Positions 16,780 through 48,800 of a stretch of 64,000 nucleotides of DNA are shown here, piece by piece. The stretch covers positions 1-64,000 of the forward strand of contig MEDY01000120.1 of assembly GCA_001724265.1 (NCBI GenBank). Direction: 5' to 3'. The DNA comes from Rhizaria sp. SCN 62-66 (taxonomy: Eukaryota). The notes beneath the pieces were generated by a model. That model was not told the origin of the DNA. It searched no databases and saw only the letters and a list, made by a program, of their open reading frames with translations. The number at the start of each line of letters is the position of its first letter. Positions within the stretch are counted from its first letter, which is position 1. Made by a program: the position numbers and the translations under genes.

Positions 16780-17647
16780 TTACGCCTCGAGGGGCATGTC
16801 GGTGGGCACGTTAAGGGCATTGCGCGTGCTCTTGCCGTACGTGTCGCCGAACCGGAACTGCTCGCCGCGGACAAAGCCCGAATAGCCGGGCACGTGGTAC
16901 TGCGGGCGCGCGCCCGCGCCGAGCGAGCCCGTGTTGGCGAGCGCGGCGGCGTTGGCGTCGGCGCCGAAGGCGGAGGAGTTGGCCCCGTTGCTGTTGCTGC
17001 TGGACTCGTAAGAGAGGGAGGAAGGGGCCTGGGGACCGGAGTGGGGAACGATGCCGCCGTGCGAGCCGTTGGGGCGCTCGTTCCAGAGGTCCTTGCCGCC
17101 GGGGGCAGCCTTGGGGAAGTTGTAGCCGAAACCCTGGGCGGAAGGGACGGCGGCGGCAGAGTTCTGGCCCTGGCCCTGAGTCTGGTTGAACTGGGAGTTG
17201 TTGCTGGCGCTGCTCTGAGTCGAGGCGTAGGCGCCCGCGGTGCGATCAAAGGCGGCGTAGGCCGTCTGCTGCGCGTTGGCGTAGGGCGCGGGCTGGGCGG
17301 GCTGTGAGGTGTTGAAGAGATCGACACATGGTGATAATGATGGGAAGATACAAATGGGAAGATACAAATGAATATAGCATAATTATGTTTGATGAGCGAT
17401 GGATAAAATCGGATATGCATAACTAAATGTAAATTGGTATTTAAACATCAAAGAAACTTCGGTCTAGTGTCGAGTCATCAATGTCAATTGCCGTGGTTTA
17501 ATAAAGAGTGAAACGTACGCCATTGTGAGACTTGTCGTAGGTGCCCTTGTAGTGGAACATGGGCTGCTCCTGGTGCGGCGAGATAAACTTGCGGCGGTCA
17601 CGGAACGTGTCGGAGTAAGTGGAAGTCCACGCGGAAGGGGTCGTCAT
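16780..17647 (-). CDS. FAM166/CIMIP2-like ciliary microtubule inner protein (PYG-type motif), 216 aa; exons 17647-17519, 17301-16780
   Basis: C-terminal motif YHVPGYSGFVRGEQFRFGDTYGKSTRNAL. N-terminal exon MTTPSAWTSTYSDTF is joined by a phase-0 GTACG..CAG intron. Ends in TAA. Confidence 0.72.
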
Positions 17648-18631: not shown

Positions 18632-19367
18632 TTATAGCTCGAAATTGGCGGTGAGGGACACGGCCAGGTGCAGGCGATCCCTCTCCCCACTGGCCACGGC
18701 AGTCATATGCGTCATGAGAGACGCGCCGGCCTCGGCGGTAACCACCTCGGGCAGCTGCTGCGCCGACCGGCCCGCCCTCCGTCCGCTGCCGCCGCCGCTG
18801 CTGTTGTTGCTGTTGCTGCTGCTGTTGTTGTGGTGGGAGGCGGAGGAGATTGTGTTGAGGGCAGTACCGGCAGCGTTTGCGCTTGCGTAAGGGCCCCGCA
18901 ATGCCTCGACGGCCGACAACAAGACGTCTGCGGAGTCGATTTGCATGCACAGACGCTGCCACGCCACGTTGCAGCTCTCCGCCTGCGCAAGAGCAGACGC
19001 AGCAGCAGCAGTGGCAGTGGCAGTGTTGGCCGAGTTGTTGGATGGGAGATGGGCGCGGGGGTAGGAGCTCTGCGCAAAACAATGCAAAAACAATATCACA
19101 GATACAAAGTATTGTGAGATGTCGATAAATAGTCGAGATTTATCGAGAGAACTTTATTCGAGTGAGAAAATGATGGAGCTGTAGTAAACGTACGTTGAGG
19201 GCGCGCTGGTATGCATCGATGGCGTCAACAACATGAAGTAGAGAAATCTCAGTCGTGGCAGTGCTGGCAAGCGGGGCCGACTGCTGCTGCTGTTGTTGCT
19301 GCTGCACCGGGTAGCCCTGCTGCTGCTGCTGGAGCTGTTGCTGTTGGGGGTGGTACTGAGGTTGCAT
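18632..19367 (-). CDS. Hypothetical poly-Q helical protein, ~203 aa; exons 19367-19194, 19069-18632
   Basis: GC-rich coding-like exons joined by a phase-0 GTACG..CAG intron, with amphipathic helices (EISLLHVVDAIDAYQRAL; AWQRLCMQIDSADVLL). Ends in TAA. A 5'-UTR intron at ~19615-19377 is probable. Confidence 0.65.
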
Positions 19368-19728
19368 GACCGCCCCTGAGCGAGAAACAAGATATGGGAT
19401 TTGAACACAAAGATGGTTAGTTGGAGCAATATAATTAACACATCGCAGAAGTAGCATATGTTGAAACAAGGATTTATTGCTGGCATTTCGAAACAACGAT
19501 GTGAATGTGGTTTGCTGGATTGGTTGACATGGGCTTGTGGTCGTTCGGCGGGGGTCCCTGCGCCGACACAGGCAGAGCCACAAACCCAAAACCGCGATCG
19601 CAAAACATATCGTACACCTTCAAATGAACGTCAAATGCGCTGCAATTGCTCTACCTGGACCTATTTTGCGTAGTTCTCTTACTTTTCTTTTTTCACTTTG
19701 CTACACTTGCCTCTGATTCAGACGCGCA

Positions 19729-22490
19729 ATGTCGTCTTCACAAGCCGCAAGCGCTGGCTAGGCCATCGCTGCCGCACCCGCCGCCGCCGCGCCCGCCGCT
19801 GCCGCCGCCGCTGCCCTTCCCGCCGTTCCGGCCGGCTACTCCGTGATTAAGGAGGGCCAGGCGTTTGTGCTCGTCCCCAAGGGCAACAAGGTGTTTTACA
19901 ACCCTGTGCAGGAGTTCAACCGTGACCTCTCGATCCTCGTCCTCACCCAGTTCGCCAAGCTCAAGGCTGAGGAAAACGATGCGCGCAGTACGTCAAACGC
20001 TTAAAACGACGTATATGCTTCAACATACCGTTAGATATTTGTGTGGTCTATTTGCAGCATTTCTTTATTCTCTATTGCACTCATATGGTAAAGCTTTGTA
20101 TCCACTCTGCGATCCGCTCACGCACTTGCCACCACACTCTCATTCCCGCCCACTGATATTTCCCTGCCACTAATCCTCAAACAGTTGCCGCCTGGCGCTC
20201 TCGCCGCGCCGCCGACCTCGCCAAGGAGGCCGCCAAGTCCTCCGCCGCCTCTGGCGCGCCTACCGACGCCGACGCCGCCGCCGCAGCCGCAGCCGAGGCC
20301 GAGGCCGCCGCAGCCAAGCTTCCTGTACCTGCCCGCATGCAGTACAACGGGCTCCGCGTCTTCGAAGCGCTATCGGCGTCGGGACTCCGCGCCATCCGCT
20401 ACTTTAAGGAGATCCCGGGGCTGCAGACGATCCACGCCAACGACTTGGACCCCGCCGCCGTGGCGAGCATCATGCGCAACGGCTCCTTCAACGGCCTCGA
20501 TCCGACCCGCTTCATCGCCTCGCAGGTACGTCGCGAAACAAGAGATATATATCCAAATTTTTTTGCACTTTAAAGTATGAAATGATTATAATCATAATTA
20601 TTTACTTGTTATCTCTCTCTCTATCAAATTTCATTGCAAAAACAAGTTTATCTGTATGCTCATTCAACTTGATCTCTCTTTCTTCTTTTCTTGCTCCTCT
20701 CACGACACGACACGACCCGACACGTTAAACACAGGGTGATGCGCTGACAGTGATGTACGCGAACCGCCCCACGTCGCAGGCGGAGCGCTCTGCCGCCACG
20801 GCCGCGGCGAAGGCCCTGGACTCTGGCTCCCTCGCCCACTGCAACTTCGATGGGACGCCTCTGCCCCCGCCGGGGCTTAAGGTCTCCAGCCTGGGGCTGC
20901 AGCCGTGGGACGTGATCGACCTCGACCCCTACGGCTCGGCCGCACCGTTCATCGACGCGGGCGTGCAGACGGTCGACGACGGCGGGCTCCTCCTCATCAC
21001 GTGCACCGACATGGGCGCGCTATGCGGCAACCACCTCGAGACGACGTTCGCCAAGTACGGTGGCATGCCGGTCAAGACGCACGCCTGCCACGAGGCCGCC
21101 GTGCGGCTTGTGCTGGGCATGGCCGACCAGGCCGCGGGCCGCTACCAGCGCGCCATCGTGCCGCTGGCGGCCTTCTCGATCGACTTCTACCTGCGCGTGT
21201 TCGTACGCGTCTATGCGCAGCCGGCGCAGAGCAAGCTGGCGTGCGGCAAGCGTGGGTACGTGGCATATTGCACCAAGTGCAAGACGAGCAAGAGCTTCAC
21301 CGCGGCCAAAGTCTCCACGCGCCCTCCCCCCGCCGCTGCCCCCGCTGCTGCTGCCGAGCAAACAGCTGGCGTTCACGATAACACTGAGTATCGTGGCAAG
21401 AAGAACAACCGCAAGAACAACATGAAGCAAAACAACAACAAGCAGAACTCTGCGAATAATAAGAACAAGAGCATGACTGACGTTGATGCTGTTGCCACCG
21501 AGGGTGCCGACAACGACGACGACGACGATGACGCTGACGCTGAGAACACCAACGACGCCGCTGCCCGCGGCACCGAGCTGAACCCCTGGGAGCTCAACGG
21601 CATCGCCAACGACGAAGTGCACAACCTGCGCTTTACGCCCTCGCTGCTGCCCGCGGACGTTGCCCGCTGCTGCGCGCACTGCGGCGGCGCCGTCAAGCTC
21701 GCTGGTCCCATGTGGCTGGCGCCCATGCATGACCAGGCGTTCGCGGCGCGCTGCCGCGGCTACCTGCGAGAGAACCGGGCTAAGTTTGGCACTGCTGCGC
21801 GAATCGAGGGCTTCCTCACGATGGCCATGACCGAGCTTCCGGACGCGCCGCTGTACTGGCTGCCGTCGTCGCTTGCCAACGTGCTGCACTGCCACACGCC
21901 CACCGTCACCGCCGTCGCCAACGCCGTCCGCAACGCCGGGTTCGAGTACAGCGAGACGCACTGTGCACCCGGATGCTTCAAGACCAACGCCCCCGCCTCG
22001 TTTGTATGGGACCTGATGCGCGCGCACGTCGCCACGGTGCCGGCGCTCAAGCTGCCCGTGTCGATGGGCCTGTCCCGGGCACAGTTGCTCGCGGGCCTGG
22101 GCCACTCTGCCACTGCCACTGCGACGGCGGCGGCGGCTGCGACGGCGCCCGCGCCTGGTGTGGCGATCACTAAGGAAGATGGCACCGTCGTGACTGTGGT
22201 GGAGGCCGAGGCCGCTGACAAGGAGGATGCCCGCTTGGAGGCTGCTCTGCGCTCTGAGTCGGCTGCTTACGCTGCCGAGCTCGAGGCCGAGGCCAAGACC
22301 AGCGCCAACAGCGCCGCCGCTGCGGCGAGTGCGAGTGAGCTGACGGCTGAGGAGAAAGCCAAGGCTAAGGCGGAGGCAAAGGAAAAGGAGCTCGACCGCC
22401 AGAACAAGCTCCAGAGCCTCTCCTTGTCTGTCGTCAATACCATTGCGGCGAACCGCGCCACGGTGGCCGCCGCTATCACCAGCATGACTC

Positions 22491-22537
<47 letters not shown>

Positions 22538-23522
22538 GACACTTCTGTCGTGAACGTGGCTGCCCTTGTGGAAGAGCTGGCCAAGAGCGGCAAGGCGCCC
22601 GGAGTAATTCTTTTGGCCCAGCCCATGACGCACAGCATCGATTTTAGCGCCAAGGGAGCCGGCGCCCGCGCCGCTGCCGCCGCTGCGAAGTACGTTTAGA
22701 TATTATTTTAAGGTCGCCATCGATATTGACATTCGTTTATTGTTTATTGCTATGTTCTTGTGTATTTATGTGTTAATTGACTTGTTATCGAGTTTTTTCT
22801 TTTCAAAGTCTCACATTGATGCGCTCTAAACCCTCTTTTGACACTCTTCCTACGCGTTGCTTCACGCTCGCATTGAACCATCTTGCTCTCTTCACATTGC
22901 TTTGCTTTGCACCTCTGTCTCAACAGGAGTGGCAAGGCTGCGACGACGACGGAGAGCGGCAAGCGCGTGCGCGTCCACTTCCCCAACCCGACCCCCTTTT
23001 GGGGCCCCAAGGCTGCTGCTGGCATCTTTGCCTCCGACAAGACCTACGACAACCCGAACATCGCGACTGTAACGGACAAGACGGCCGCGGAGGAGGCCGA
23101 GGCCGCGGCTGCGATTATGGCGGGCAACAAGGGCGGCGTTAGGTACGGCTATGCTTCCGATATCATCGCCTATATATCACGACGTGATAAATCAGCGATC
23201 ATAAAAGAGCACGATGATGACAAGACGAAGACTTGAACAACTCGAATTTGCATACTCCTCGCTTATATTGCTCCTATGTTGGCATTTAGCAATTGATATG
23301 TATAGATCGCATGAAAATCCATTTGTATTCTGACCATTACCCGCTCACTCGAATATCTATGCCCTTGAATCTTTGTTTTAAACTCTTTGCAGTGGCGGTG
23401 ACCAGACTGCCGAGATCGTTGCGTCCATGGTTGCAGCTCAGCGTGCGAAGCAGCTTGCCAACCAGGCCGGCAAGAGCAGGAAGCGCGCCGCGCAGGGACC
23501 CCCCAGCACTGACAACGAGTGA
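19729..23522 (+). CDS. TRM1: tRNA (guanine26-N2)-dimethyltransferase, ~966 aa; exons 19729-19987, 20185-20525, 20735-22689, 22927-23142, 23393-23522; in-frame TAG at codon 11
   Basis: Motifs IKEG..VFYNPVQEFNRDLSI, FEALSASGLRAIRY, ANDLD, DVIDLDPYGS, GGLLLITCTD, CHEAAVR, SIDFYLRVFV, CTKC..CAHC, GPMW, ELPDAPLY, SETH, KTNAP and FPNPTPFWGPK. Four in-phase GTACG introns; ends in TGA. Confidence 0.95.
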
Positions 23523-24025
23523 ACTCACTGGAGCTCGTAGTGATGATGAAGGTCTTATCTAAGTTGCTTACAAGAGTGAAGGGCCAGTGTTTGTTTTTTA
23601 GAACATGATTATAAGATATATACAGAAGCTTTAAGATTAATAACGAGTCAAAACAATATAGCATTATTTAATTGTTCTCCTTCTGTCATAATACTCTGAA
23701 ACAATAAGATATGACAGAAATATCTCTTGTTTAGTGGTAGATTTGATGTGTGTAACAGAGAGTGTGCGAGCGAGTGACGTAACGGATGGACTGAGCCGAA
23801 AGTGGCACTTCTATTTGCATGTGGTATGAAGCGATTTTACCGTTGACTGAATTGAAACGGACGCACAAGTATTTTATGTAGTATTTAGTATCGATTTTTT
23901 AATGCGTATGTGAAACATCGAAGTCTAGTGTGCTTACCAAGTCCTTTGCTTCTGCCTCTCCCAACTCGCGCTTGCTGCCCTTGTTCGCCCCACTTTGGCA
24001 GCGCTGCGCCGCTCGGTTCCGTCCC

Positions 24026-27070: not shown

Positions 27071-30000
27071 TTAGTGCGCGCCCTCCTTCCCCTTCTTGTG
27101 GTGACCGTGGGCGTGGGCGGGCGCCCGCGGCTTATCCAAGTCGCCGTCCATGAGCGCCTTCGCCAGCGCGGGCGGCAGCGGGGCCGGCTCCGCGATGGCA
27201 GGCAGCGCCAGCGCCCAGGCCTGGAGCTTCTGGTAGTAGTAGGGCGCGAAGAAGCGGTAGTAGCTGCGCCAGACTGCCCAGACGACGAACATGGCCATGA
27301 CGGCAAGTAGGAAGACGAGCCAGAGCAGAGTGGAGTTGTAGGAGAACTGAAGCAGCCCGTACGTGTCCGGGGAGAAGGATGAGAAAAAGACTAGCGACAG
27401 GAACATGTAGACGGCGATGAACAGCGCGATGCCGATGGCCCAGACGAGGACGGAGATCCAGGAGATAACGTCGCACTCGGCCAGCATGACGCAGTTGACG
27501 AGCACGATGACAGCCCAGCACTGCATGTTGCCGATGGAGAACAGGTCGAACGTCTTGCCGGAGCCAGCGTCGATCTCAGGCCGCATCGCGCTGTAGAAGG
27601 TGAAGGCGTAGACGAGCACGGACTGGATCGTCGCAACGGTGAGCCAACGCAGCAGCTCGGGCACGGTATAGCGCGTCTCAAGCTTGTTGTACTTGTACGC
27701 CAGAGGCGCGCGCAGCAAGAGCCGTTCGTGCGCGTCGCGGTCGAAGATGCCGATCGAGAGCGGCTGCAGCGAGGTGAAGGCGAGGTTGTAGAGCGACATG
27801 AAGTAGGAGCTCGCGACGATCTGGCCCGAGTAGTTGTCCGAGAAGGCGAACCACACGACGGGCAGCACGAAGACGAAGTTCTTCCACAGGGACAGCATGA
27901 CGACCTTAGACGTGCGGTTGAGGTTGTAGCGGCCGTGTACAAACAGCAGCCGCTGCAGGTGCGCGAACCGGTGGACGACGTAGTCGGCGGACATGGCGGC
28001 GTGCGAGCCCTCTTTGCCGAGGATGCCGATGCCGACGTGCGCCTCCTGGATCATCGACACGTCGTTGGCGCCGTCGCCAATCGCCAGGCACGTGTGGCCG
28101 AGCTCGCGCTTGACAAGCTGCACCACCAGCGCCTTCTGCTTGGGCGCGGAGCGGTACGTCACGATCGTCGCGCACGCCAGGAAAAAGCGCAGGAACTCCT
28201 CCTTGCAGTGGGTCAGCGCCGTCTCGAGCGTGTTGCCCGACAGAATCGCCACGAACACCAACGGCTTCGTCGTTTCGCCACTCTCAGAGGCGGCGTCATC
28301 GCTATTGTTGCTCTGAGAAACCTGCTTGTTCTTGCTCTTGTTCAGAGTGGCCATCTCGATGCCCGCCTCGTCGGCGGCATTGCTCCCGCTGCGGAGACTG
28401 CTAGCGTTGGCGCCAGCGTTAGCGTTGTTGTTGTTGTTGTTGGCGTCATTGGCACTGGCGGGCGCGGGACTGAGGGGCAGGTCGATCGCTTCGTCGTCGC
28501 CGGCGTCCGAGGGCCTCGACACCCGCGTGCGGATGCTCTGGCTGGGCTTCCCGGCGGCCTCGATGAACGCCAGACAGGCCGTGAGCGAGCGGCGGCACAC
28601 GTCAGCGCGCAGCTCGGCCTCCTCCTCGGGCGGCAGCACTATGGCGGGGACGGCGGCGCCCGCGGCGGCGGGGCTCAGCACTGGTGAACCCGTGACGGGG
28701 CCGATCGGCGACGCCATCGCCGCCAGCGCCTGCTGCTGCAGCGCCAGCGCGTCGGGGTTCTGCGCGATGTAGCGCTCCAGCCGCTGCGCGTGCTCCTCCT
28801 CGGTCGGCGTCGCGGTCACGTACAGCCTAGAGTTGGTTGTGAAAAAATCAGTTTGAGTTATATCGATGTGAGTTTGGTGCAGTGAAATGATAAACTCTGA
28901 ATAAATCAGTGTGAAATACATATAATTCATTGAAATTGTGCTAGTTTAGTATGAATTGCAATAGATATACAGCAAGCGACATACCTGGTCATGTGCTCCT
29001 GGAGGATGTGGCACTCAGCCGAGATGGTCTCGGCCGTCTCGCGCTTGTCGCCGGTCAGCACGACGACCTTGACGCCCGCGGCCAGTAGCGCGTCGACGGT
29101 CTCTGGCACGCGCTCCTGCATCTGGTCATTGACAGCCGAGATGCCCAGCAGGTCGAGCCCGCGCTCAAGCTTCGCGAACGCCGCCTCCTGCGCCGCCTCA
29201 CGATCGCCCAGCGAGGTATTCGCCGCGGAGTACACCGCGAACCAGTCGTCGAACTCGGCGGCGGCCATGACGCGGCCCGCGAGCACAAGCGTGCGGGAGC
29301 CCGTGGCCGCGAACGTGGCGGCCTGCTGCTCGGCGCGCGCCAGCAACGCGGCGCCCTCGGCCGACTCGGAGTCGCACATGGGCAGCACGGTCGAGTCCGC
29401 GCCCTTGATCAGGAGGTAGATCGCGTCGGTGGCGTCGCAGCGCACGACCAGGTCGGACCGGCGGCGCGCCGAGCTGAACTCGAGCGAGGCCAGGACCGAA
29501 AAAGTCAGCACTGCGGCGGCGGGGACGGCGACGGTGGCTGAGGCCTCGGCGGTGTGGGCGCCGAGCCCAGAGCCTGCGGCGGCGTCGCCAAGCCCGCCGG
29601 CGCTGCTGCTGCCGCCACCGTTGACGTTGACCTCGACGTCGAGGACATCCGGCGGCCGGGAAGTCACGCCGCCGCCGCTGCCGGAAGTATAGCCGCCCTG
29701 TTGGATGCCGAGCCCCTCGGTTCCTGGAATGTAGCCAGAGGACAGGGCTCCGTAGTCTTCGTCGGCGCCAGGCTGCTTGAACACGGACGCAGAAGACGAA
29801 CCAGCGGTATTGTTGTTGTTGTTATTGTTAATGTTAGCATTGAGAGGGCTCTTTTTGACGTCGTTGCTGTTGGCGTCGCCGCCGTTGTCATCTTCGGAGT
29901 AGCTCGTGCAGAGCAGCTCCAGGTGGTCGCCGAGACGGCGGAAGAGCATCAGCCCTGCGCGGTAAAAGGCCTCACACAGCGCGATCTCGTCGGGCGACTG

Positions 30001-33000
30001 CGACTGGAACTGCCACTGGCCCGTCTCGGCGTCCAGCACGGGCTGCACGCCGTTGTTGAGCAGCATGTTGTAGGCAAACAGCAGCTGCCGCTCGCGGACG
30101 CGGTTGGCGCGGAACCCCTCGGCCGCGGCAGCCGCCACAAGCGCCGTCTCGTCGGGCTGGAGGGCCTCCCAGGCCGCCGAGACTGCGGGCGGAGGCGCCA
30201 CGGCCTGCGTGGGGTGCGTAGTCGCGCGCGTCGGCCGGCAGTGCACCGGGGACAGCGGCTCGGGGGCGGAGGACGAGACGGGAGACGCCGCCGCGAACGC
30301 AGAGCTCTTGTTGCTGCTGTTGTTGCTGTTGGCGTGGAAAGCGAAAGGCATAGCCTTGATGATGACGTCGGCGAGGGCGTTGACCGTGGGCATGCCGGGG
30401 GTGCTCAGACTCAGGTTGGACGCGGAACCACTTAGATTGTGGCCCTCCGCGTCAGCGGCGCCGTCAGCGTTGGCACCCTTAGACTCGCCGTCAACAGCAG
30501 ACTTGTTGCTATTGTTGTTCTTGTTCTTGTCATCATTGCCGTTGGCGCCATCCTTGTTGTTCAGCCGGTCAGGCACGTCCTGGAACAGAGTGCCCGCGAC
30601 AGACACGTACGCCAGCTCCATCTTGTTCTGCGTGAGAGTGCCCGTCTTGTCACTGAACACGTAGTCGATCATGCCCAGCTCTTCGTTCAGCGCGCTCGTG
30701 TTGACGCGCATCGCCTTGGGCTTGGTCGAGGGCGGCATGTCCGGGTCCTTCCACAGGAAGCCCTCGTCCCACTCCATGAATTGGGCCTACGGTGAGGTAT
30801 AACACGAAAGCGATGAGAATTTGAGGGTAATATAAGCATGTGTTGAAAACAAGATAGTGAATTCGAATAAAATATGGTTAAACCCGCTGTGAAAATAAGT
30901 TTAACAACAATTCAAGATTATCAAAGCACATAAAATTTAAATGTAGAGAAAGCGTACCTGTCCGACTTTGACGAGTTCGATTGTGACGTAGAGCGAAATG
31001 GGAACCATCCAGGAATAAAGCACGTAATGCGTAAAGAAGGACAGCAGCCAGCCGACGAAGCCGCCCTCGTAGATGTCCATGACGTGCTCGAACTTGCTGT
31101 TGACGACGAGCGAGATGGACGGCATGAGCAGACAGAAGATGAGGTTGATGACCATGATGATGATGATGAACGTGTTGAGCTTACGTTCGAAGCGGCTAAA
31201 CTTAAACTGCGCCAAGTTACGGTTCAGCATCATCTTGGTCTCGCCGCCCGTGTACACGACGACGGCGTTGACAAAGGCCGTGTTGGCCAGAGATGAGCCG
31301 CGCAGCAGCAGCTGCTTGTGCGACAGCGAGTGCATGTACCTCCCCGCCCCGTCAGTATGGGCGCTGACCGCCGTCGCGGGCAGCTCGGGCACGATGGCCC
31401 CGCCGGCGGCGCCGGCGACGACAACTGCATTCGCGTTGTTATTGCTATCGATGCTCTCGCCCGAGTTGGGCGCGAGGGCGAGTGCGCCCTTCCACTCGTG
31501 CATGTTGCTCGACGGCGGCTCCGCGGTCACCGCGCCCTGCAGGTGCACGAGCCCCATGGGCTGGTGCAGCGCCAGTGTGGCCGCCGGCGACGACTTGGGC
31601 TTGGGCACGGCCTCGCCGTCGAGGTTGGCCGTGTTGACGAACGCCAGGCCGTCCGCAGAGGAGGACGACAACAGAGCAAGGTCGGCCGGGAACTCCTCCC
31701 CGTCCAAAATGCGGACGATGTCGCCGACGCGCAGGTTCGCCGAGGCGACGCGGTCCCACCACTGCACGCCCGCCTCGCGCGTGCTGCCAGCGCCGCCAGT
31801 CACGGCGCGCGCGGGCACGGCCGCGGTGACGGACCCGCCCGCGGATCCCCCGCCTCCTTTAGATGAGAGGCGCGAGACGGTCCGCGTGAAGGACGCGCGG
31901 CGGCCCGCGGCGCCTGTGTTGACGCCGCTCGTGCTGTGGTGGCCGCCGCCGCCGCCGCGGTGGGCGAAGGCGCCCAGGCCCAGGGCGACGCCGAGACGGG
32001 AGCGGCGCTCTGAGGCGGCGGCGGCGGCGTCGACGTTGCCGCTGCAGTCATTGCTGTTGTTGTTATTGTTATTGTTGCTCTGCTTGTGGTTGTTGCCGAG
32101 AACGACAGCGTCAGGGTCTGACTCCACGTTGTTATTGTTGTTGTTGTTGTTACTGCCGTCGACCATAGTGACTGTGGGCAGGCCTGCCGCGGCCACCGTG
32201 GCCACGGAGCCGTCCTTCGCATGGCCGTGCCCGTGGGCAGAGTGACTGTGAGCGCTCTCGACGAGGGCGTAGTCGGGCTTCGGCAAACGGGCCAGCACGT
32301 CGGCCTCGGTCACGCCAGTCACGCCGTTGCGCTCAGCCTGAAAACGACAGAAAAGATATGAAAAGATATGGAACGTGAGGTATAGGCACTCCAAGAGAAA
32401 ATTAAATGTAGATATAAAGTGACATTTTAAAAGCCAATACATCATACCACCTAAAGACATAATTGTCACTCCAACAAGAGATAAATCGATGATTTAGCAT
32501 CTGAAACGTACGCGGTCGAGCAGGGCCTTGCAGACGGTGGAGCGCGTCCTCAGCACGAGGTAAGTACGCGCGTTGGCGGCGTGGTCGGCGCGGTGACGGT
32601 TCCAGTCCTCCTTGGCCTCCTTGATGGCGGTGACGGCGAGGATGATGAGGAGCGGGATGAGCGACGAGTAGATTGGGAACGGTGACACCCCGGGAATCAG
32701 CTGGATGATGACGATGATGAGGAAGTATAGGTTCGCGATGCGCCGGAACTGTTCGAACAGGTTCAGCGGCAGGAAATCCCACCACCGGTACTTTGAGGTC
32801 TTGATGAAGTTGGATGCGAAGGCCTTGCCGGAGCCGTCGCCGCCGCGGTGGAGCTCCCGCTGCTCCTGCTCCTGCTCCGGCGTCAGCTGAGACGGTGAGC
32901 AACCTCCGTCAGCGTGGGGGTGACCGTGGGCAGCGGGCTGACTGTGGGCGAAGTGACGCAGCTCGGAGACCGTGAGGGGCTTGTTGGCGGGGGCGTTGTT

Positions 33001-33630
33001 GATGATGATGCGGCGCTTTCCAGCCTTCTTCTTACCATCCTTCGCATCCTTACCATCTCTGCCATCCTTGCCCTTGCCTGACTTCTTGTCACCGTCCTCC
33101 TTAGCAGCAGCGGCAGTGGCGGCCGTCTCAGTCTTAGCGCTGCCCTTGTGGCTGTGGATACCACCCTCAGCGTTGCTGCTGCTGCTACTGCTGTTGTTGT
33201 TGTTGTTGTTGTTCGCAGCAGCAGCGGCGGCGGCGGGGGCTGGGTCTGCGCGGACAACGAGGCTGAGCGTCGACAGCTGAGGGCCCTGCCCCTGCTCCTG
33301 CTGCTGTTCGGCGCTCACATTGCTGCTGTTAGCGCTGTTGTTGAGGGAGAACTGCTCCTCGTCCTGGTCGGTGATCGGCTGGACCGCCGAGGGCTTGATG
33401 CGCGCACTGGGCGGCATTTGCGGCGACGGACGGCCCGAGGCCTGAGCGCCGGCGGCGGCTGCGGCGGCAGAAGACGCTGCCGGGAGAGGCAGAGAGTCCG
33501 GGGGCGAGTTGCTGCTCGCGCTTGTCGCGTTTGTGGTGTTTTTAGCGCTGTGTGAGTCGGAGGCCGATCCGACAGGGTCCTCGGGGCCCGGAGGATTGGG
33601 GGACTGTGGCGGCGGCGGGAGCTGGGACAT
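27071..33630 (-). CDS. P4-type ATPase (phospholipid flippase), ~2018 aa; exons 33630-32512, 32337-30958, 30786-28985, 28826-27071
   Basis: Motifs SNFIKTSKY..FLPLNLFEQFRRIANLYF, EEFPADL, NLDGE, LLLRGS, VPISLYVTIE, NEELG, FSDKTGTLTQN, QSPDEIAL, LEFSSARRR, KGADS, LTGDKRETA and AIGDGANDVSMIQEAHVGIG, plus a C-terminal TM bundle. Ends in TAA. Confidence 0.97.
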
Positions 33631-38448: not shown

Positions 38449-38744
38449 CGTCGGCAATGCTGAAGCCGCTTAGTTAGAGAAGATTTAAGAGGTCTTAAGA
38501 AAATTCAAAATAAGAAAATAGATATAAGTGTTAGAAATGGCTATATATGATTCTCACATGCGCGGTTGACGATTAGTTATGTGGGGACAGTCTGTTGTTT
38601 GAATGCTCCTCGAAGGTCGAGAGTCGTTGGGATGGAAAGGATGTCCAAAATTGCAATATATGATGCGTCATGGCTTGATCGTATAAGTTCGATCTGGATG
38701 CGTTTTGCGAAGTAAACCATGGCCAGAATACTAATATTCAAATT

Positions 38745-41700
38745 ATGTTTTCCAAATCTGTGTTCTTCCTGCCCCACAGCAATCCCCAACCTTCCCTCAG
38801 TACAGAGCAGATCCTGTCCGTCCTCATGAGCAGGCCCGCTGCCTCAGCAGCAGCCTTCGTCTCTGCCCCCGCTGCCACAGCCTTGCTTGCACCTGTAGCA
38901 GCGACGGCGGCGTCGCTGGCAGAGGAGCGCGTGCGCACGGCGGCCTTTGCGGCGCGGCTGCAGGCCATCCAGGCGCTCGCTCGGGGTGAAACACTGGCCG
39001 CGAGCAGCAGCAGCAGCAACCACAGTGGTGCCAGCGGCAGTACCGCTCGCGCGAGTGCCACCAGCAGCAGCACCAGTGTGGCCGGCCGTGGCAGCAGCGA
39101 CAATAGCAGCGCGCGCAAAGCTAGCCTGAGCCGCAGCGCAGCTGTCCCTGGTGCTGTCCCTGGTGCTGCCCCAGCTGCTGCTGCGTCCGCAGGCTCTGGC
39201 GGGGGCATTTTGACCGAGCTCGAGTGCTTTGCTGCTGCCGCAGTCGTCGCTGTTCTGTTGGGCCGGCGGTCGACGCGCTCACGGTCACAGTTGCATCCGC
39301 GGTCAGAGCTTACGAGTGACGATGCGGGTGCTGTCACTGTCGCGTATGCCAGCGGACACGAATGCCTCGAGCTGTCCACTACTGTGGGTGCTGCAGAAAA
39401 CAGCGCCGATGCTGAAGCTCGCATAAGTAGCAGCAGAGGCCACAGCAGCAGCTGCAGCTGTTATGACGCTGTGATCGCGCCTGCGCTCGAACGCTGTCCC
39501 GCTTGCCATCATGGCAATCGCCATAGCAGCAAAGGCAGCAGCAACAGCAGCTTTAGCAGCGGCAGCAATACAATGAGTGATTGCAGTCAGCAGCAGCGGT
39601 CACAGTGTGAACACTGGCGGCCGCCGCGCTGCGGCTGCTGCGCACAGTCCCTTGCGAGCGACAGCGACTGCTCACGGTCACTTGTCAGCAGCAGCAGCTA
39701 GTCGCGCCCGCAGCAACGCCCGCGGGCAGCTGGGCGTGATGCCACAAAGACGCACTTCTTAGAGTCAGCAATCTATTTCAAGCCACCTTCTCCTTTTGAC
39801 TCGGCGTCATCAGCCACGAACAACAGCGGCAACGACGACAACGGCGGCAACGCGGACGGCGATGGCGACACCGGTGTGTCGTCCGTCACTGCGCCCGCGG
39901 TCACCGCGCTCTGGCTCGAGTGTGGGTCCGTGCCGCATCACGCATCTGCCCACAGTCACTCAGCAAGTTACAGTGGCCCTGAAACTGAGGCCGACACGGA
40001 CACTGATAGGGGCTTGCAGTGGGCTGAGGTGTGGGTGACTGTGAGCAGCCGAATCAGCTCGCGATCCCGCTTAATTGCCGACGGCGCCTCCTTAGATATG
40101 GACGGCGCCCCTTTAGACTTGGATGAAGATGTAAGTGCGAGCTTCTGTGTTGCGCGCGTGCCGCTGCCGCCAAACTCGCAGCTGCCGCTGCTGCTGCCGC
40201 CTCAGAGCAACGGCGCGCACGCAAGCAGCGGCAACAGCGGCGTCGTAGGGGCGAAAGGGGCAAAGATGAGCAGCAGCAGCTACTGGGGCGAGGTTGGCGG
40301 GAAGGCGCGCGCTCATGTGCTCACTTACAATCTAAGTACCTCCAGCGACAATCGAAACACGAATGCTCTATATCGCGGCAGCAATCAGGACGCATCACGC
40401 GCGAGTACTACCAACATTCTAAGCGTCTATGGCAACGACATCAACAGTCCCAGCCGCAATGAAAACGCGTCCAAGAACGATCGCCGCAATCACGACAACA
40501 GCAACAACAGCAATAACAGCAACACAAGTCTTGTAAGCAAGCTGGGATTGGGACCGGGTCAAAGGCTGATGCCGAGGCCGCTGCCGCCGCCGCCGCCGCC
40601 GCCGCTGCCCCAGTCCCAGCCACGTCAGCCCCAGCAGCAACAACAGCAGCAGCAAGAGCTTGCGCGCGAGTGGTTGCGGCAGCAGAACAGGCAGCGGCTG
40701 CTCCGCGGCGGCCGGCCCATTGCCACAGCGACGACGGCGACTGCGGTATCAACCGCGGTGGCAGCGAGCGCTGCCTTTGGTCGCCGAGCCCCGGCCCCCC
40801 CTCTGAGCAGCACCGGCGCGAACGGCGCAAGCTCTCGCAGCCGTAGCCGCAGCGGCGACGCCAACGCCGACTGCGAGTGCAACGGCACGCGCAGTGCTGC
40901 GGCGCCTGCGGTGCGCAGTGGGAGTTAGGACGCAAGCGGTCGATATGGCTACTTGGCACACTCGCGCTCGCGCTCTAACTCTAGCTCTCGTGACCGAGAC
41001 CGTGACCGTAACCGTGAGCAAGCAGCGAAGGTAAGTGGGCGCGCAGGCAGCGACTGTGAGCGTGTGCGCGTCAAAGCATCTGCCCACAGTCGCTCACCTA
41101 GTGCTCACCGTCCCTCTCACGGCCACGCTCGCAGTCTGAGTCGCAGTAACGGCATCGCCAGCCGCAACGCTGTCACGAGTGCTACTGTCACCGTGGCGAT
41201 TGCGAGCGATACGGAGGACTGCGATGATGATCGTAACAACAGTGCTGCAGATGCCGACGATGGATTAGAGCAGCATCTACAAGCACAACCGCAGCAACAA
41301 CAGCAGCAGCAGCAGCTGCAGTCGCAAGTTGCTGGGTCTGCTTCTGCTGCTCTTGATTACTATGCTGCTCAAGACACTGACAACGGCGTTAATGTCCATG
41401 AAGGCGAAGGCACGTTTCCGCTTGACGAGGCCGACGTCAGCAACATTGCAGACGCGGAGGCGGCTGCGCTCATGCATGCCTGGCTCGCGGAAAGTCAGAG
41501 CGCGTATGAAGACACTGAAGACGCTTCATGCGGTCAAAGTCAAGCCGGCTCTAATCATGTCGATGCGATGCAAGAGCAGCAGCAACAGCAGCAGCAGTAG
41601 CAGCAACATCACAGCGCTGAGCAGGAGCAGGAGCAGGGGCAGCACCACAATAGCCTAGACCGTGATGTGTTGAGAGCGCTGGACCTGCTGGGCCGGGCGC

Positions 41701-44374
41701 CGCGGCCGCAGCCGCTGCTGCCGCTCCTGTTGCGCTGCGCACAGTCACCTGCTGGCCGTTTGCAGTCACATGCTATGAGTACACAGCCATCTGCTGCCGT
41801 TGATACAGATGTATCTGTGAATGACAACGCTGCCGTCACGCGACTACAGCAGCAGCAGCCGCAGTACAGCTACGACGCGTTGTTTGAAGCCGGTGCAGAC
41901 AACGCCAAGGGCTACGGTGATCCCAACGCTGCTGCTGGTGCTGTGAATCCCGCTCTGGACACGGCTGTGGCGGCCGCTGTGACTGCCGCCTTCGCGCACC
42001 CGTCTCCAAAGCCTAGCACTCGCGCACGTGATAATGCGGCTGCGTGGCAGCAGCGCGGGGGCGGCTTGGCTTTGAATGCCGGTTTGACTTCTCCCATTGG
42101 CGGTTTCTCATTTCTCAACAGTGACAACAATGGCGTAGCTTCACCTGGCGGCTTAACTTCGCCGTACTTTATTCGCAGCAACCTGCAACACTTCGACAAC
42201 AACAGCAATAACAACAACCTTTACGCCAATAGCACTAGCAACAGTCGGAGCGGCAGCAGCGGCGTCCACGACGCCAGCCACAGCGGCGGCCTCCCGAGCG
42301 ACTGTGAGCACACTGCGGGCGGCGAGTCGTTTCTCTACTCGCCCGCGCCGCATCAGAGTGACCACATCAGCAAAAACAGCAACGGCGACAGCGGTGTCAT
42401 TCGCGGCAGCAGTCACAAAAGTCCGCGCACCGAGCTGATGCACGCGAGCACAGACACAAACACGCCTCTGAAGAACGACCGCGACGTTGACTGGAGCAAC
42501 GACGACGCTGGCGACGCTGGCGCTGGCAGAAACTGCGACCCCGCGCTGGACGAGTGTCCGCCGCAGTCAAGGCCGCAGTCGCTGCTGCCGCGGCCCACGG
42601 CGAGTCCGTTCGCTGCCGCTGCCAGTGCCCACAGTCACTCTCGGGCGCAGTTGCAGGCGCAGGCGGGGGCGCATTTGCGGTCTCAGCTGTGTGCTGCGAC
42701 AGGACTGCCACAGCAGCTTGTGGCCGCTCCGAGTGCAACCAAAACGCATGTGCAAACACAGACGCAAGATTCCTTTGCTCCGAATGTTCCTGGGTCAGTT
42801 CTTGCTCCTGCCTCTGGCGCGGCCTCAGTGTCCGACGCAGTCACCGCAAGTGCCTGTGCGCCTGTGAATGATTGTGCGCCTACTCGTGAGACTGCAGTAT
42901 CTCCGGTAGCCTCCGCAAGTGAGGCCGACACCGACATCAATCGCACTGCTAGCGCCCCTGCAACGCCGACGCCAACAGCTATGGCCCCAGCGTCGCCTGC
43001 AACGGCCCCCATCAGCTCCACATCCGCATCCACGGCCACGGCCACTGCCACGGCTACTGCGAGAGCCAATGCCAGTGCCAATATCGATAACGCCGCCGCA
43101 CCGTCCCCGGCCGCGCTGGCAATGGCCCAGGCCCGCGCCGCGGCCGCGCGCGTCGCCGCCACCGCCGCGGCCGCCGCCGCCCGCGTCACCGGCACTCGCG
43201 CTGGCGCACTGCGCCCGCGGTTGCGGCTGCGGCGCCGAGCGTAGTGCTCGAAGTGACGGCCGCGAGGATCGCTGCCAACGCGCACGTCGGTGTCGGGGGG
43301 CTAGCGCTATCGTGGGTGCGCAATCTAGCGCCACCGCCGTCCATATCAGACCTGAAGCAACGGCAGCCGATGCCGAAGCTTGACTCTCCCGCGACTGCTG
43401 CGGCTGAAACTGCAACGGTGACCGCGAGTGACTGTGAGCGGGCGCGGTGGGGCGGCGCGGACGAACTTGAGAGCATCAGCAGCAGTCTGAACAGCAGCTT
43501 GAACGGCATTTGCAACGCCGACGAAGACAGTAATAGCTCTCAAGCGGCCTGTCTTGCCAGCAATGAAAGTGGCAGTGGCAGTGACATCAGTGGCGATAAG
43601 AGCAATGAAACTCCCACTCATGCAAATGCAGCTGCGGACCACAGCGGCGAAAGCGCTGGTGTTGCGGATATTGCAACTGATACTGCAGGCGCAAGTGCGT
43701 GCAACAACAGCCACGCTGGTGCTGATGAAAACACACACATAGTTGCAGGTAATGTCGTCTGCACCGGCAGCGATGCTACCAGCAACCACAACCATGACCA
43801 GGACAACTGCGGCGACTTTGACAACAGCAGCAGACTGTTCAGCAGCATTAGCGACGGCGACAGCAGCACTAGCAGTGAAAACGCGACCAACGAGTCCGGC
43901 AACAACAATCGCAGTGGAAGCAGCGCTGCCGTCACGACGGCTGCTGCAACTAAACCCACAATCACGAACGTTGCGCCCACACAAGCTTCCACACCGGTGC
44001 CCATGATCGCTGTCACTGCGCCCCCGGCCGCTCGGCTCAAGCCACTGCCTTCTCCTGAGACTGTCATTAAATCACAATCAAAAGCACAATCGCAGGCTCC
44101 TTCCCAGTCGCAGTCGCGCGTGTGCGTGTGCCCGTCTTTTGTCCCCGCGTACTTGTTGTCTCCAAACACTCCAATAACAACGCAGACGGCAGCAGAGGCA
44201 GACAGCGTTAACGCACGCACCAATGCAGCGAATGCTGTCAGCGAGACAGTGTGTGTGGTGCACTACTCGCTCCGGCTGCGGCTGCGGCACGAGGCCGCGC
44301 TGCTGCTGGGGGTTAACGAGAAGCTCCGCCAGCGGCGCCAGCGCAAGCTTCGGCCACAGCAACAACAGCTTTAA
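38745..44374 (+). CDS. Large hypothetical low-complexity protein (~1870 codons) with three in-frame TAGs (39699, 40926, 41598) and one frameshift near 43210; start uncertain
   Basis: Four ORF-track segments lie in the same frame, separated only by TAG, with no TAA/TGA and no AT-rich intron-like gap. The coding composition continues in another frame to TAA 44372-44374. Confidence 0.6.
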
Positions 44375-45880: not shown

Positions 45881-48800
45881 ATGGACGCCGACGAGCCGAC
45901 CGCGGTTTTGGCTCTCGCCACCAACGAAGTCTTTCTCGTCTTCCGCGACAGTACCGTCCTCATCCTCCATGAAGGTTTGTCAAATACGTCACCTTTGTAG
46001 TAACTCAGTAGAAATGGCGCTTGCATTTCCCCACATGCACTGTATCCCCCTCACCCCTTGCTCCTTGTTATCCTCCTCTCGTGGCTTCATTGTGTTTAGA
46101 CCCCAGTTACTTCTCTTTCGCGGTCGCCGCAGCCGACGGCAGCGGGCTCCGCAGCCTCACCAAGCACGTTTCGGCCTCTTGTCTTTCCTCTTTGCGCCAC
46201 AAGCTCGCCCATGCAGTCGCAGCACGCAACTCTTTGTGCGTATACGCGCCCTCTCTTATCATCCCGCCTCCACTTGTACTTAACGCAAACATCGCAAACA
46301 CGATTCGCAATCCTGCTGGCGCTGTTCCCACTCGCGGCGCGGGCGCTAACCACAGTGTGGGGGCTGTCAGTGTGTGCGAAAGTGTGATTGACTACGCAGG
46401 TGTCTATCAACACATTTGTTCCACAACAGCTGCAGCAGCAGCAGCAACACCTCACAACCTCAGCACTCCGAGCGCTGCTGTTGCTGCGGCGGCGGTCGAG
46501 GGCATTGCTGCACTGCTGCCGCCGCCGCAGCGCCTGGCCGACTGGCCCCGCCTTGTTGCCGACGCGTTTGCCTGGCCTCAGCAGCACCAGCAGCAACAGC
46601 AACAACAGCAGCAACCGCAAGAGGCTGTGAGCAGTCGGAGCAGCAGCAGCAGCAGCTGCAGTCGCAGTGGCAGTGGCTCTCACGACAATAGCGGAGTGAC
46701 TGTGAGCAGGTGGGCCGGCCGCGCGCTGCGCCAAAGCGACCTCGCAGCGCTGCCGCTGCTTGCTCCCACGCACAGCCACGGCCACTGCCACGGTCACGGT
46801 CCCTCTGGTCTTTGGGGCGCTCCCGGCGTGTTTTCGTGGATGACACTGACTGTGCCCCTGACAACGGGCAGCACGCAAGTCAAGCCGCGTAATCATAATC
46901 ACAACGGCGTCGACGAGCACCAAAGTGAACCCGCCGATGGTAATGGTCACGATGCTGGCAATGTCAGCTCTCTGGCAAGCGAACTGCATCGAATGCAAGC
47001 CGCCATCGCGCACTCGAACACACTCATCAATGCTAACACCGCTGACAACACCGCTTTCGCGCACAACCCTCACACTGCCGCTGGCGCCGACGCCAACGGC
47101 TATGCGTAGCAGCAGCGCGCTCCGTGCGCGCAATGGGCGCGAGTCGCTGTGCTGCGGCTCGACGGGGGGCTGCCACCGCGGCCGGGGCCCGTGGCGCTGC
47201 CGCCGCTGCTCCCGCTCTCCATCGCCCCCGGCAGTCCTAGCCGCAGCAGCAGCAGCAGTGAGGGCGAGAGTGCTTTTGCGAGTCGCAGCGGCGCTACCGC
47301 TGCTGCTGCTGCTTCTGCTGTCGCAGTCGGTGCAGGGCCGTGGCTGTGCGCATGGGCTCTACCGCCTCTGGAACAGCCCCTCTCACACTCGCGCTCGCGC
47401 AGTCACGGCCACGGCTACGGCCAGAGCCGCGGCCTTAGCTCCCGGCAAGAGCGTCACGACGCGGCGATTGCGCGTCTGGCGCTCACGCTCGCGCAGTCAC
47501 TCTCTCTGAGTCCCGACAGCCCGCACAGCAGTCAGGCGAATTGCAGTCAGGCGAGCAGCGGGGCCCACGCGGAGCACGGCGACGGCAGCGCCAGATGCAG
47601 CGCGAGATGCAGCGCGAGCGAGAACGACTCTCTCGCCACAGAGACCGCTGCCGCCGCCGCCGCCGCTGCCGCCGCCGCCGCCGTGCGCATTGCTGTCGCG
47701 GCCGCCGTGGCCGCGGGCGCCAAGGTCTGCGCCCTGTCGCTGCCGCTGCGCGGACTTGTGGTGGCGGCGGCGCCCTCGCAGACGGGCGCGCGCCTCGTTG
47801 CCTGGCGCAGCAACCGCCGCGACTGCAGCAGCAGCAACAGCGACGGTGACAGCAAAGCGCACAATGCCGCCGGTGCTGCGGCGGCGAGTCGCAGGGCGAG
47901 TGCCGGAGGGGTGTGGGTGCTTGAGCTGTCGCCGTGCGCGGGCACTGGCGGGCCGGGCGCGGGCATGCTGGGCCCCGGGTCCTCACTATGGGCGCTCAGC
48001 GCGGCCGGCGAGGGTGTGCACGGTCACGCCGCGGGCTGGGAAAGGGTTGGGTACAAGGTATGCGTGCGCTCGCAACGTTGATGTAATATCAATGAAATTT
48101 TAGTTGAATCAAATTGAATGATTTTTAGTGAATTGTGTGTATTTATTATCCTGGTTCAACACAATAGCCTCATTTCAACCTATCTATCTCATTTTAATTC
48201 GATTACTGTGCCCCTCACACTGCACCACTGCAGAGCCGCGCCCTGCTCGAGGCTCTGGCCCCGGTGTGCGGCTTTGCGGCCGCGCTTGAGACCCGCTGCT
48301 GCGACGCCGCCTACGCCCACGCTGACGCCGCGGCCGTGCAGTCTGGAGCGGGGTCTGGAGCGGGGGGGGCGCGGTGCGGCACGATGCAGCAGTGCGTGAC
48401 GTGTGGCGCGTTGGAGCCCGACTACACGGCCGCGCTGACCGCGATCGTGACGCCGCCCCCTGTCTCGTCGTCGTTATTATTCAACAACAACGAAAACACG
48501 GACCCAGGCCTGCCCGGCCTCGACTCTGGCTCTACTCTCTCCACTGCGAGCGAGACTGCGGGTGCATGTGCGAGTGCGGGTGGTAAGTCAGCTGCTGCAG
48601 CCGCGGCGGCTCGGGCGGCGGCCGCGGCGGCGGCCGTGTTGGCGCCGGCGCGCGTGGTGGCCGAGCAGTCCGTGCCGGGCGTGGGGCTGTTCACGCTGCA
48701 CGGCGACGGGCGCGTGGCGGCGCGGTATTACGACAACACACTCGTCAAACTCACTGACGACCACGCTAACAGCGGCGACCTCGGCCGCGGCAGTCACGGC

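Follow-up and report, generated by a model that had tools for sequence, protein, structure and literature searches.

In-frame TAG codons in TRM1 and two other genes of an uncultured eukaryote, and the case for UAG as a sense codon

Nuclear genetic codes in which UAG alone is altered are known from very few lineages. One is that of the fornicate Iotanema spirale, where, in the account of Panek et al. (2017, PMC5304391), UAG encodes Gln while UAA and UGA are stops. Among 119 complete transcripts in that report, 104 end in UAA, 15 in UGA and none in UAG, and 204 in-frame UAG were counted in 126 genes, many of them at hyperconserved Gln positions. The same source gives Leu as the meaning of UAG in the rhizarian exLh (PMC5304391), and UAG reassignments have been described in phyllopharyngean ciliates (PMC11687900). 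Stop codons can also be read under the standard code: in yeast, according to a preprint, a Q-stop-Q context promotes readthrough, tRNA-Gln decoding the premature stop in Gln-rich mRNAs (Leslie et al., 2026, PMC13192750). Here, a stretch of 64 kb (the window, meaning the whole stretch of DNA that was analysed) is examined in the light of these systems, the focus being an in-frame TAG near the start of TRM1.

The TRM1 gene and its eleventh codon

The spliced model of TRM1 has five exons and 967 codons, ends in TGA and contains a single internal stop, the TAG at codon 11, which follows a candidate ATG and nine sense codons (Table 1). A sequence-only reading had claimed that this TAG lies ten codons after the only plausible ATG, that no other in-frame ATG precedes the conserved block and that the rest of the gene, with its four introns, is intact, and all of this holds: past the TAG at 19759-19761, an Ala-rich GCC repeat leads in open frame to the TRM (PF02005) block, no in-frame ATG recurs before codon 138 (position 20337) and the remaining 955 codons are free of other internal stops. 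Introns 3 and 4 are backed by spliced contigs of run X5, introns 1 and 2 being predicted from GTACG...CAG sites and Pfam continuity. The TRM domain is full-length: exons 1, 2 and 3 match profile positions 3-44, 50-100 and 121-256 onwards, with E of 3.6e-9, 1.8e-14 and 3e-77, respectively (the first obtained on 19762-19986, with the match at ~19840-19965), and 869 homologues were found at E <= 0.001. Nine of 10 strain differences in exon 1 (19848-19956) fall on third codon positions, which argues that this exon is translated and under purifying selection. No second TRM-domain gene is present within the 64-kb window.

This TRM1 is most closely related to P0001 (67% identity by BLASTP in the best alignment, or 57% when the alignment is taken as a whole) and to P0122 (78% within exon 1). 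P0122 shares the position of the exon-1 intron: its ORF continues into GT-A-R-P, which is what a GTACGG donor at this position would give. In P0122, however, a plain ATG stands ten codons ahead of the block, whereas the window gene has a long Ser/Ala-rich N-terminal extension containing the TAG, an extension that is thus lineage-specific. An M-S start is also seen in five other gene models of the window. The ATG itself lies within an open stretch of just 14 codons (from the upstream TGA to the TAG), in which a chance in-frame ATG would not be improbable alone.

Three data sets establish the TRM1 TAG as real DNA. In two of them, both from other studies, contigs span the site with no difference (X3 record 2, 19602-22484; X4 record 9, 18850-19926), and since they carry identical letters the TAG is not an assembly error; nor did other data give CAG, an outcome that the sequence-only reading had named as fatal to its claim, as both independent contigs read TAG. 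An assembly or sequencing error, which the low coverage (~6-fold word depth) and the GCC repeat adjoining the site might bring to mind, is therefore exceedingly improbable in the face of contigs from two further studies that are identical over 19602-19926. A strain about 95% identical is present in runs X4 and X7. A metagenome scan for relatives' DNA yielded nothing beyond a 2297-bp fragment of this very sequence, which starts at window position 20117 and is devoid of the 5' end, and a scan of genome contigs for such DNA returned nothing. As for RNA, a relative's contig (X7 record 23) begins at 19784, that is, 3' of the TAG, and the depth seen over 19600-19784 in runs X5 and X7 consists of GCC-repeat matches of other organisms, no listed contig spanning this interval.

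Could the TAG be spliced out? All 22 modelled introns start with GTAYG (124-271 nt, GC 0.30-0.44) and there is no GTAYG donor on the + strand between 19214 and 19987, so no consensus splice removes the TAG, and the upstream exon joined to the AG at 19760-19761 that had been named as another refutation did not materialise. Only one candidate donor is in phase 0, and it would turn the ATG at 19413-19415 into a one-codon upstream coding exon, spliced (GTTAGT...TAG/) to 19762 with removal of the TAG. This exon has the right phase (0), its start codon is in a favourable context with A at -3 and G at +4, and six of the 22 modelled introns end in TAG/G, but its donor scores -2.2 bits, below all 22 introns (4.2-16.3 bits), none of which departs from GTAYG. 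Moreover, the intron would be 346 nt long (maximum seen 271) with a GC of 0.47 (maximum 0.44), its last 45 nt would have a GC of 0.58 (maximum 0.56) and no pyrimidine tract, and the exon would sit 46 nt away from the start codon of a divergent gene at 19367, all of which makes this escape highly improbable.

Alternatively, under the standard code, TRM1 could start past the TAG at a non-AUG codon (AUC 19765 or GUG 19843), the ATG at 19729 and the TAG at 19759 then delimiting a ten-codon upstream ORF. The AUC has G at both -3 and +4, the open stretch around the ATG is short, and 5' leaders can be GC-rich in this DNA (as for the GH125-domain ORF 53205-62141), so the rise in GC at 19722 need not mark coding sequence. 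Nevertheless, few near-cognate start codons are as weak as AUC, genes without any AUG start are rare, and the GUG has U at -3 and sits inside the conserved block. There is no stabilising structure downstream either, RNA folding of 19722-19870 revealing nothing unusual (z +1.48). Since such a start would also leave unexplained the TAGs found elsewhere, namely that of gene 46840-49514, which has 365 open codons before it, and three in ORF 38745-43256, we regard it as quite unlikely.

Table 1. Coordinates of TRM1 and of in-frame TAG codons in the window
Feature	Position	Strand	Remarks
ATG/GTTAGT, sole phase-0 candidate as donor of a coding exon farther upstream	19413..19421	+	Judged unlikely
In-frame TGA closing the TRM1 frame 5' of the ATG	19714..19716	+	
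Candidate TRM1 start codon	19729..19731	+	Purine at -3; N-terminus MSSSQAASAG
TRM1 exon 1	19729..19987	+	Ser/Ala-rich N-terminal extension with GCC repeat, then conserved block (Pfam TRM ~19840-19965)
In-frame TAG, codon 11 of TRM1	19759..19761	+	Same in contigs of runs X3 and X4
ATC, sole near-cognate start codon between TAG and conserved block	19765..19767	+	G at -3 and +4
GTG within conserved block	19843..19845	+	ORF start picked by a prokaryote-type gene caller (P0121)
TRM1 intron 1	19988..20184	+	GTACGT...CAG, 197 nt, GC 0.44; predicted only
TRM1 exon 2	20185..20525	+	Pfam TRM positions 50-100
TRM1 intron 2	20526..20734	+	GTACGT...CAG, 209 nt; predicted; absent from relative P0001, which is continuous across the junction
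TRM1 exon 3	20735..22689	+	Main TRM domain, E 3e-77
TRM1 intron 3	22690..22926	+	Spliced contig, run X5 record 20
TRM1 exon 4	22927..23142	+	
TRM1 intron 4	23143..23392	+	GTACGG...CAG; X5 record 21 is spliced here, with the joint fixed to within 2 nt
TRM1 exon 5	23393..23522	+	Ends in TGA 23520-22
In-frame TAG, ORF 38745-43256	39699..39701	+	Long low-complexity ORF
In-frame TAG, ORF 38745-43256	40926..40928	+	
In-frame TAG, ORF 38745-43256	41598..41600	+	Amid a run of CAG/CAA codons
TAG near the end of ORF 38745-43256	43242..43244	+	Four codons ahead of the TGA that ends the ORF if TAG is sense
In-frame TAG, gene 46840-49514	47107..47109	+	Followed by CAG CAG

TAG codons and gene ends across the window

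The TAGs at 39699, 40926, 41598 and 47107 lie in GC-rich sequence, open in a single frame, of two genes besides TRM1. In every segment around them, the frame with the TAG has no other stop and the best codon score of the six, the frames that do not bear it having 1-25 stops, and each TAG joins long ORFs in the same frame, for which the chance would be (1/3)^4 if these were separate units. Together with codon 11 of TRM1, these are in-frame UAGs in otherwise intact genes.

In gene 46840-49514, 365 open codons precede the TAG in the same frame. In-frame ATGs are confined to 46840 and 46993, both ahead of the TAG, and 47965, within the conserved block, and no GTAYG donor exists on the + strand between 44671 and 48057. 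Conservation was seen 3' of the TAG, where a relative's ORF (P0183) matches residues 564-682 (BLASTP, E 5e-16 pairwise), the whole-library phmmer search giving E 2.4e-7 over 544-682. A whole-library search with 46012-48057 found nothing but the window's own ORF and a single relative, the match to which again lies 3' of the TAG, and ESM Atlas gave no usable hit for the ORF 5' of it, the model of which is disordered (pLDDT 0.33). ORF 38745-43256 yielded no homologues, in a search swamped by polyQ words, and a frame change follows it at 43244-43370, which would fit a decaying gene. The idea that the ORF at 38679-43244 is the shadow of a minus-strand gene was rejected, as there is no long minus-strand ORF there.

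Two of five TAGs adjoin CAG codons, a placement to be expected if TAG means Gln and C-to-T changes are therefore silent, and the Q-stop-Q context (a stop flanked by Gln in Gln-rich sequence) is present at 41598, half present at 47107 and absent at 19759, 39699 and 40926. TAG is rare overall, with about six in roughly 14,500 modelled codons (the sum over the gene models of the window), all in disordered sequence. The 8135 codons of the best (conserved) genes contain none, against 228 CAG and 39 CAA, which is far below the count expected of a neutral synonymous codon. No Pfam domain spans a TAG in the 106 TAG-containing ORFs scanned (out of 173 listed, the off-frame ORFs of confident genes having been left out). 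Likewise, no TAG coincides with a conserved, alignable residue (Gln) in homologues, or falls in a Pfam match or alignable block, so that both the decoding and the identity of the amino acid are putative.

Gene ends are informative in another way. About 15 confident gene models (a small sample) terminate in TAA (nine) or TGA (six to seven), and UAG ends none of them. A doubtful minus-strand model at 44672-45572 could end in TAG. As a control, an in-frame TAA flanked by best-frame coding was found just twice, both times in consensus AT-rich introns, and a TGA never. Reading either as sense merely extends gene ends, beyond which the sequence turns directly AT-rich and non-coding: UAA and UGA retain their stop meaning. 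That TAA might also be sense was rejected because of this AT-rich sequence after each terminal TAA and the intronic location of both internal ones. A tRNA scan of the window found none, and an Rfam scan had no match.

The absence of TAG from these gene ends bears on two further explanations. The first is a change at the RNA level: A-to-I editing could turn UAG into UGG, U-to-C editing could turn it into CAG, or a spliced leader could provide an AUG at the AG of 19760-61. Stop-correcting A-to-I editing does occur in some fungi, as do AUG-donating spliced leaders in some animals, but there is no pyrimidine tract ahead of 19761, editing would leave the lack of TAG terminators unexplained, and this scenario is very unlikely. 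The second keeps the standard code and takes the TAG as a fixed nonsense mutation, with TRM1 a null or weak allele that low-level near-cognate readthrough or downstream initiation would leave partly active, and with the other TAG genes decaying or tolerating readthrough in Gln-rich contexts. Yeast trm1 deletion mutants are viable. The TAGs are confined to weakly constrained, disordered sequence, with the conserved genes spared, the frame change after ORF 38745-43256 points the same way, and random nonsense mutation in these genes would yield TAG more often than any other stop (55-61%), with the consequence that five of five being TAG has a P of about 0.05-0.08. The QXQ readthrough reported in yeast provides a precedent (PMC13192750). 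However, three of about 19 genes would have been hit, yet 1521 and 680 codons of open frame contain no frameshift, the other 955 codons of TRM1 are intact with exon 1 under purifying selection, the same allele occurs in three studies, and again the lack of TAG terminators is left unexplained. We consider this explanation unlikely, while giving it more weight than the other alternatives.

A candidate reassignment of UAG and its known counterparts

The sequence-only reading had proposed that UAG is a sense codon. Strengthened by the extra in-frame TAGs and the lack of a clear TAG terminator, this is now the best-supported single explanation, although no TAG lies at a conserved residue and it falls short of a demonstration. 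On the patterns seen in this DNA, we therefore lean, by a modest degree, towards UAG being read as sense (probably Gln), with UAA and UGA as stops. The organism would (i) translate UAG as an amino acid, most likely glutamine (an identity that we infer), and end translation at UAA and UGA, (ii) start TRM1 at the ATG at 19729, ribosomes reading the UAG at codon 11 and going on to translate the Ala-rich extension and then the methyltransferase domain, and (iii) decode UAG by a putative tRNA-Gln with anticodon CUA, or by strong near-cognate decoding, together with an eRF1 that may read UAG poorly. The rarity of TAG and its confinement to disordered sequence suggest that the reassignment is young or inefficient. 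For proof that TAG is an amino acid codon, 64 kb are insufficient.

The source is an uncultured, GC-rich, intron-bearing eukaryote of bioreactor and wastewater metagenomes, which is probably flagellated and is present in runs X1-X4. It is conceivable, and offered as a tentative proposal short of probable, that this inhabitant of wastewater bioreactors, of which no close relative has been sequenced, is in the first phase of turning UAG from a stop into a glutamine codon, with UAG already gone from gene ends and coming back sparsely, so far in disordered regions alone, while UAA and UGA are still stops. If true, the codon-capture or ambiguous-intermediate step would here be caught in nature. One more lineage, unrelated to the others and using UAG very sparingly, would then show a genome during or shortly after the change, which theory predicts but which has rarely been observed. 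There is a practical side as well, since standard-code gene callers will truncate or split the genes of this organism: in P0121 the TRM1 exon begins at an internal GTG, and in P0182 gene 46840-49514 stops short at its TAG.

How does this compare with known systems? The Gln-context readthrough of yeast, as described in the preprint, fits the TAG at 41598 (Q-TAG-Q), for which it could account by analogy, and partly fits that at 47107, but it is partial and at odds with the TRM1 context (Gly-TAG-Ala) and with the lack of TAG terminators (PMC13192750). In exLh and the phyllopharyngean ciliates, UAG is uncoupled from UAA, as appears to be the case here, but with other amino acids and in other lineages (PMC5304391; PMC11687900), the CAG contexts in the window indicating Gln rather than Leu. 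Iotanema spirale differs in the extent of UAG usage, with 204 UAG, many of them hyperconserved, in the published account, against about six in roughly 14,500 codons here, none conserved and with a decoding that is predicted (PMC5304391). The window organism is also set apart by its high GC, its spliceosomal introns with strict GTAYG donors and a gene for a ciliary protein. Nevertheless, Iotanema as portrayed by Panek et al. (2017, PMC5304391) is the system that it resembles in the nature of the putative change, with only UAG affected, UAA as the main stop and Gln as the likely meaning.

The TRM1 frame and its codon 11

The start of TRM1 is as the sequence-only reading described it: an ATG (19729-31), nine sense codons and then an in-frame TAG (19759-61). 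A TGA (19714-16) closes the frame upstream; after the TAG the frame stays open, first across GCC repeats that encode an Ala-rich stretch and then in the block matching the Pfam TRM family (PF02005). The rest of the gene is intact, codon 11 being the sole internal stop of a 967-codon spliced model, and no other in-frame ATG precedes the conserved block, the next one being codon 138 (20337). Spliced contigs of run X5 (records 20 and 21) bear out both introns at the 3' end, whereas the two 5' introns are predicted, intron 2 with support from a relative (P0001) whose sequence is continuous over that junction and lacks the intron. With TAG read as sense, TRM1 is a clean five-exon gene scoring 0.38 bits/codon, versus 0.26 for a chimeric standard-code model. 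Five codons past its terminator, the same frame reads TAG TGA TGA TGA (23520-23550).

A strain ~95% identical to the window was found in runs X4 and X7, and its listed differences fall mostly at third codon positions (9 of 10 in exon 1, 19848-19956, and 4 of 5 in exon 3, 20944-20963; 13 of 15 together). The exon-1 block is therefore translated and subject to purifying selection, and a TRM1 protein beginning as late as codon 138 is ruled out. Counted against UAG as sense is a close relative's TRM1 (P0122, 78% identity), whose exon 1 starts at an ordinary ATG, ten codons ahead of the block and at a position where the window reads GCC; the long N-terminal extension is therefore recent. Long Ala-rich extensions do exist elsewhere, since the TRM1 of another organism (P0124) has a similar one, with M-S at its start.

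Coordinates of TRM1 and of other features in the window
Feature	Coordinates	Strand	Terminator	Remarks
TRM1 exon 1	19729-19987	+
TRM1 exon 2	20185-20525	+
TRM1 exon 3	20735-22689	+
TRM1 exon 4	22927-23142	+
TRM1 exon 5	23393-23522	+	TGA
CMI2B-like gene	16780-17647	-		Small gene; C-terminus matches (E 2.1e-6) first 31 positions of CMI2B-like ciliary microtubule inner protein family
P4-type phospholipid flippase	27071-33630	-	TAA	~2018 residues, four exons, long low-complexity inserts
TAG-rich ORF	38679-43244			1521 codons
ORF with TAG 47107	45973-48081
Alpha-mannosidase ORF	53205-62141	+		Intron-less, 2978 codons; ends in metal-independent alpha-mannosidase domain (GH125, E 4.4e-96); no Pfam match in first ~2700 residues; ATG near 53400, after GC-rich leader

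Routes around the TAG under the standard code

An error of sequencing or assembly is very unlikely, since contigs of two further studies (X3 record 2, 19602-22484, and X4 record 9, 18850-19926) cover the site with 0 differences, and thus show TAG rather than the CAG that had been named as refuting. The window sequence is also present in bioreactor and wastewater metagenomes from several studies.

Splicing offers little more. Joining an exon that contains 19759-61 to 19762 keeps TAG in frame, therefore the sole escape is an upstream exon, in phase 0, that splices to the AG at 19760-61, which had likewise been named as refuting. The 5' splice site hardly varies: the 22 introns of our gene models, two of them RNA-verified, invariably start with GTAYG (20 GTACG, 2 GTATG); they are 124-271 nt long, with a GC of 0.30-0.44 versus an exon GC3 of ~0.8, and six end in TAG before a G. 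No GTAYG is found on the + strand in 19214-19987, and no in-phase ATG precedes those just upstream at 19190 and 19209. The palindrome ACGTACGT (19188-19195) reads GTACGT on both strands, its minus-strand copy being the donor of an intron (19193-19070) in the divergent gene. The single phase-0 candidate is an ATG-only exon, ATG/GTTAGT at 19413, which is highly improbable: its donor scores -2.2 bits versus 4.2-16.3 (leave-one-out) for the 22 introns, its intron would exceed their maxima in length (346 versus 271 nt), GC (0.47 versus 0.44) and GC of the last 45 nt (0.58 versus 0.56), and the divergent gene at 19367 has its start codon 46 nt away from it.

Initiation at a non-AUG codon after the TAG is unlikely, although one near-cognate codon, ATC 19765 (G at -3, G at +4), lies between TAG and conserved block. 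It is the only one, GTG 19843, ATT 19846 and AAG 19849 all being inside the block, and such a start would leave TRM1 without any AUG. The downstream sequence shows no unusual RNA structure. RNA editing, or a spliced leader that donates an AUG, has a slim chance of being the explanation.

Other TAG-bearing genes and stop-codon use

The ORF with TAG 47107, where TAG is followed by CAG CAG, repeats the TRM1 anomaly independently, because a conserved block lies downstream, with no ATG between and no GTAYG donor on the + strand in 44671-48057. When phmmer was run against the whole library of 1.84 billion representatives, an ORF of a relative, P0183, matched residues 544-682, downstream of the TAG (E 2.4e-7; by BLASTP residues 564-682, 37% identity, pairwise E 5e-16), and both stop at the same exon boundary. 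Two in-frame ATGs (46840 and 46993) precede the TAG, and a third (47965) falls within the block.

The TAG-rich ORF, for which no homologues were found, is open save for TAGs 39699, 40926 and 41598 (the last within a run of CAG/CAA codons), with neither TAA nor TGA. It is GC-rich throughout, without an AT-rich trough, and in each of four segments its own frame has 0 stops and the top codon-usage score, versus 3-22 stops in the other five frames. It ends at TAG 43242/TGA 43254, and ORF 43091-44374, which looks coding but uses another frame, overlaps it and runs on. For this stretch (43050-43420), GC-rich and without an intergenic trough, the candidate readings are a frameshift, the mark of a pseudogene, and a pair of closely spaced genes.

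These two genes merge with higher scores if TAG is sense. At each of the four internal TAGs, the long ORFs on either side share one frame, an outcome with a probability of (1/3)^4 under models of separate translation units (separate genes, trans-splicing or re-initiation). Of the window's in-frame stops with best-frame coding sequence before and after them, three are TAG (39699, 40926 and 47107) and two are TAA (14649 and 32496), both of these TAAs in consensus AT-rich introns; there is no such TGA. Modelling TAA or TGA as sense lengthened gene ends, nothing more.

Terminators in ~15 confident models are TAA (9), TGA (6-7) and TAG (0), and TAA is a true stop since the sequence past each terminal TAA is AT-rich and non-coding. 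The 0 of 15 for TAG has a P of ~0.01-0.09 at an expected share of 15-25%, which we counted against UAG as sense. One minus-strand model, 44672-45572, is doubtful and may have TAG as its terminator, but in its simpler form the terminator is TGA. At ~44950-45070 lies a long trinucleotide microsatellite (poly-Ile/poly-His on +, poly-Asp on -), of uncertain coding strand, the best frame being minus.

UAG as a probable sense codon, and known code changes

The proposal that UAG is a sense codon holds as the best explanation of the pattern, and we consider it slightly more likely than not that UAG is translated while UAA and UGA serve as stops. It is favoured because (i) TAG-specific in-frame codons occur in 3 of ~19 genes, in frames without frameshifts, (ii) two TAGs precede conserved coding sequence with no ATG between and (iii) there is neither splice escape nor TAG terminator. 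The CAG contexts point to Gln as its meaning; decoding would be by tRNA-Gln(CUA), or strong near-cognate decoding, plus an eRF1 weak on UAG.

Counted against this reading are the lack of homologues of the TAG-rich ORF and a TAG usage far below neutrality (~6 in ~14,500 modelled codons). The ten best coding stretches (8135 codons) hold 228 CAG, 39 CAA and 0 TAG, and no TAG sits at a conserved residue or within a Pfam match in the 106 of 173 TAG-containing ORFs scanned, a set without those in off-frames of confident genes. A leaky nonsense allele under the standard code is a minority possibility: past the TAG-rich ORF the frame changes (43244-43370), as it would in a gene undergoing decay, a random nonsense mutation in these genes would be TAG in 55-61% of cases (P 0.05-0.08 for five of five), and in yeast, readthrough under the standard code is raised by a Q-stop-Q context (PMC13192750). 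If UAG is instead reassigned, its rarity and confinement to disordered regions suggest that the reassignment is young or inefficient.

TRM1 is about equally distant (~54-57% over the aligned part) from its named matches, among them Ichthyophonus, Naegleria, Mucorales, animals, a choanoflagellate and oomycetes. The CMI2B-like match suggests that the organism builds a flagellum or cilium.

Among known systems, Iotanema spirale comes closest (PMC5304391); UAG alone is affected there, as is proposed for the window: it encodes Gln, the main stop is UAA, the second UGA, and no UAG terminators are reported. The same paper gives UAG as Leu in the rhizarian exLh, and UAG reassignments are reported in phyllopharyngean ciliates (PMC11687900). 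The window organism differs from these: its exons are GC-rich, its AT-rich introns begin at a strict GTAYG donor, and it has a gene for a CMI2B-like ciliary protein. If our reading holds, this would be a further case of a known kind of code change, one that is especially interesting because it appears to be at an early stage, with ~6 TAGs in ~14,500 codons versus the 204 in-frame UAGs in 126 genes given for Iotanema in PMC5304391.
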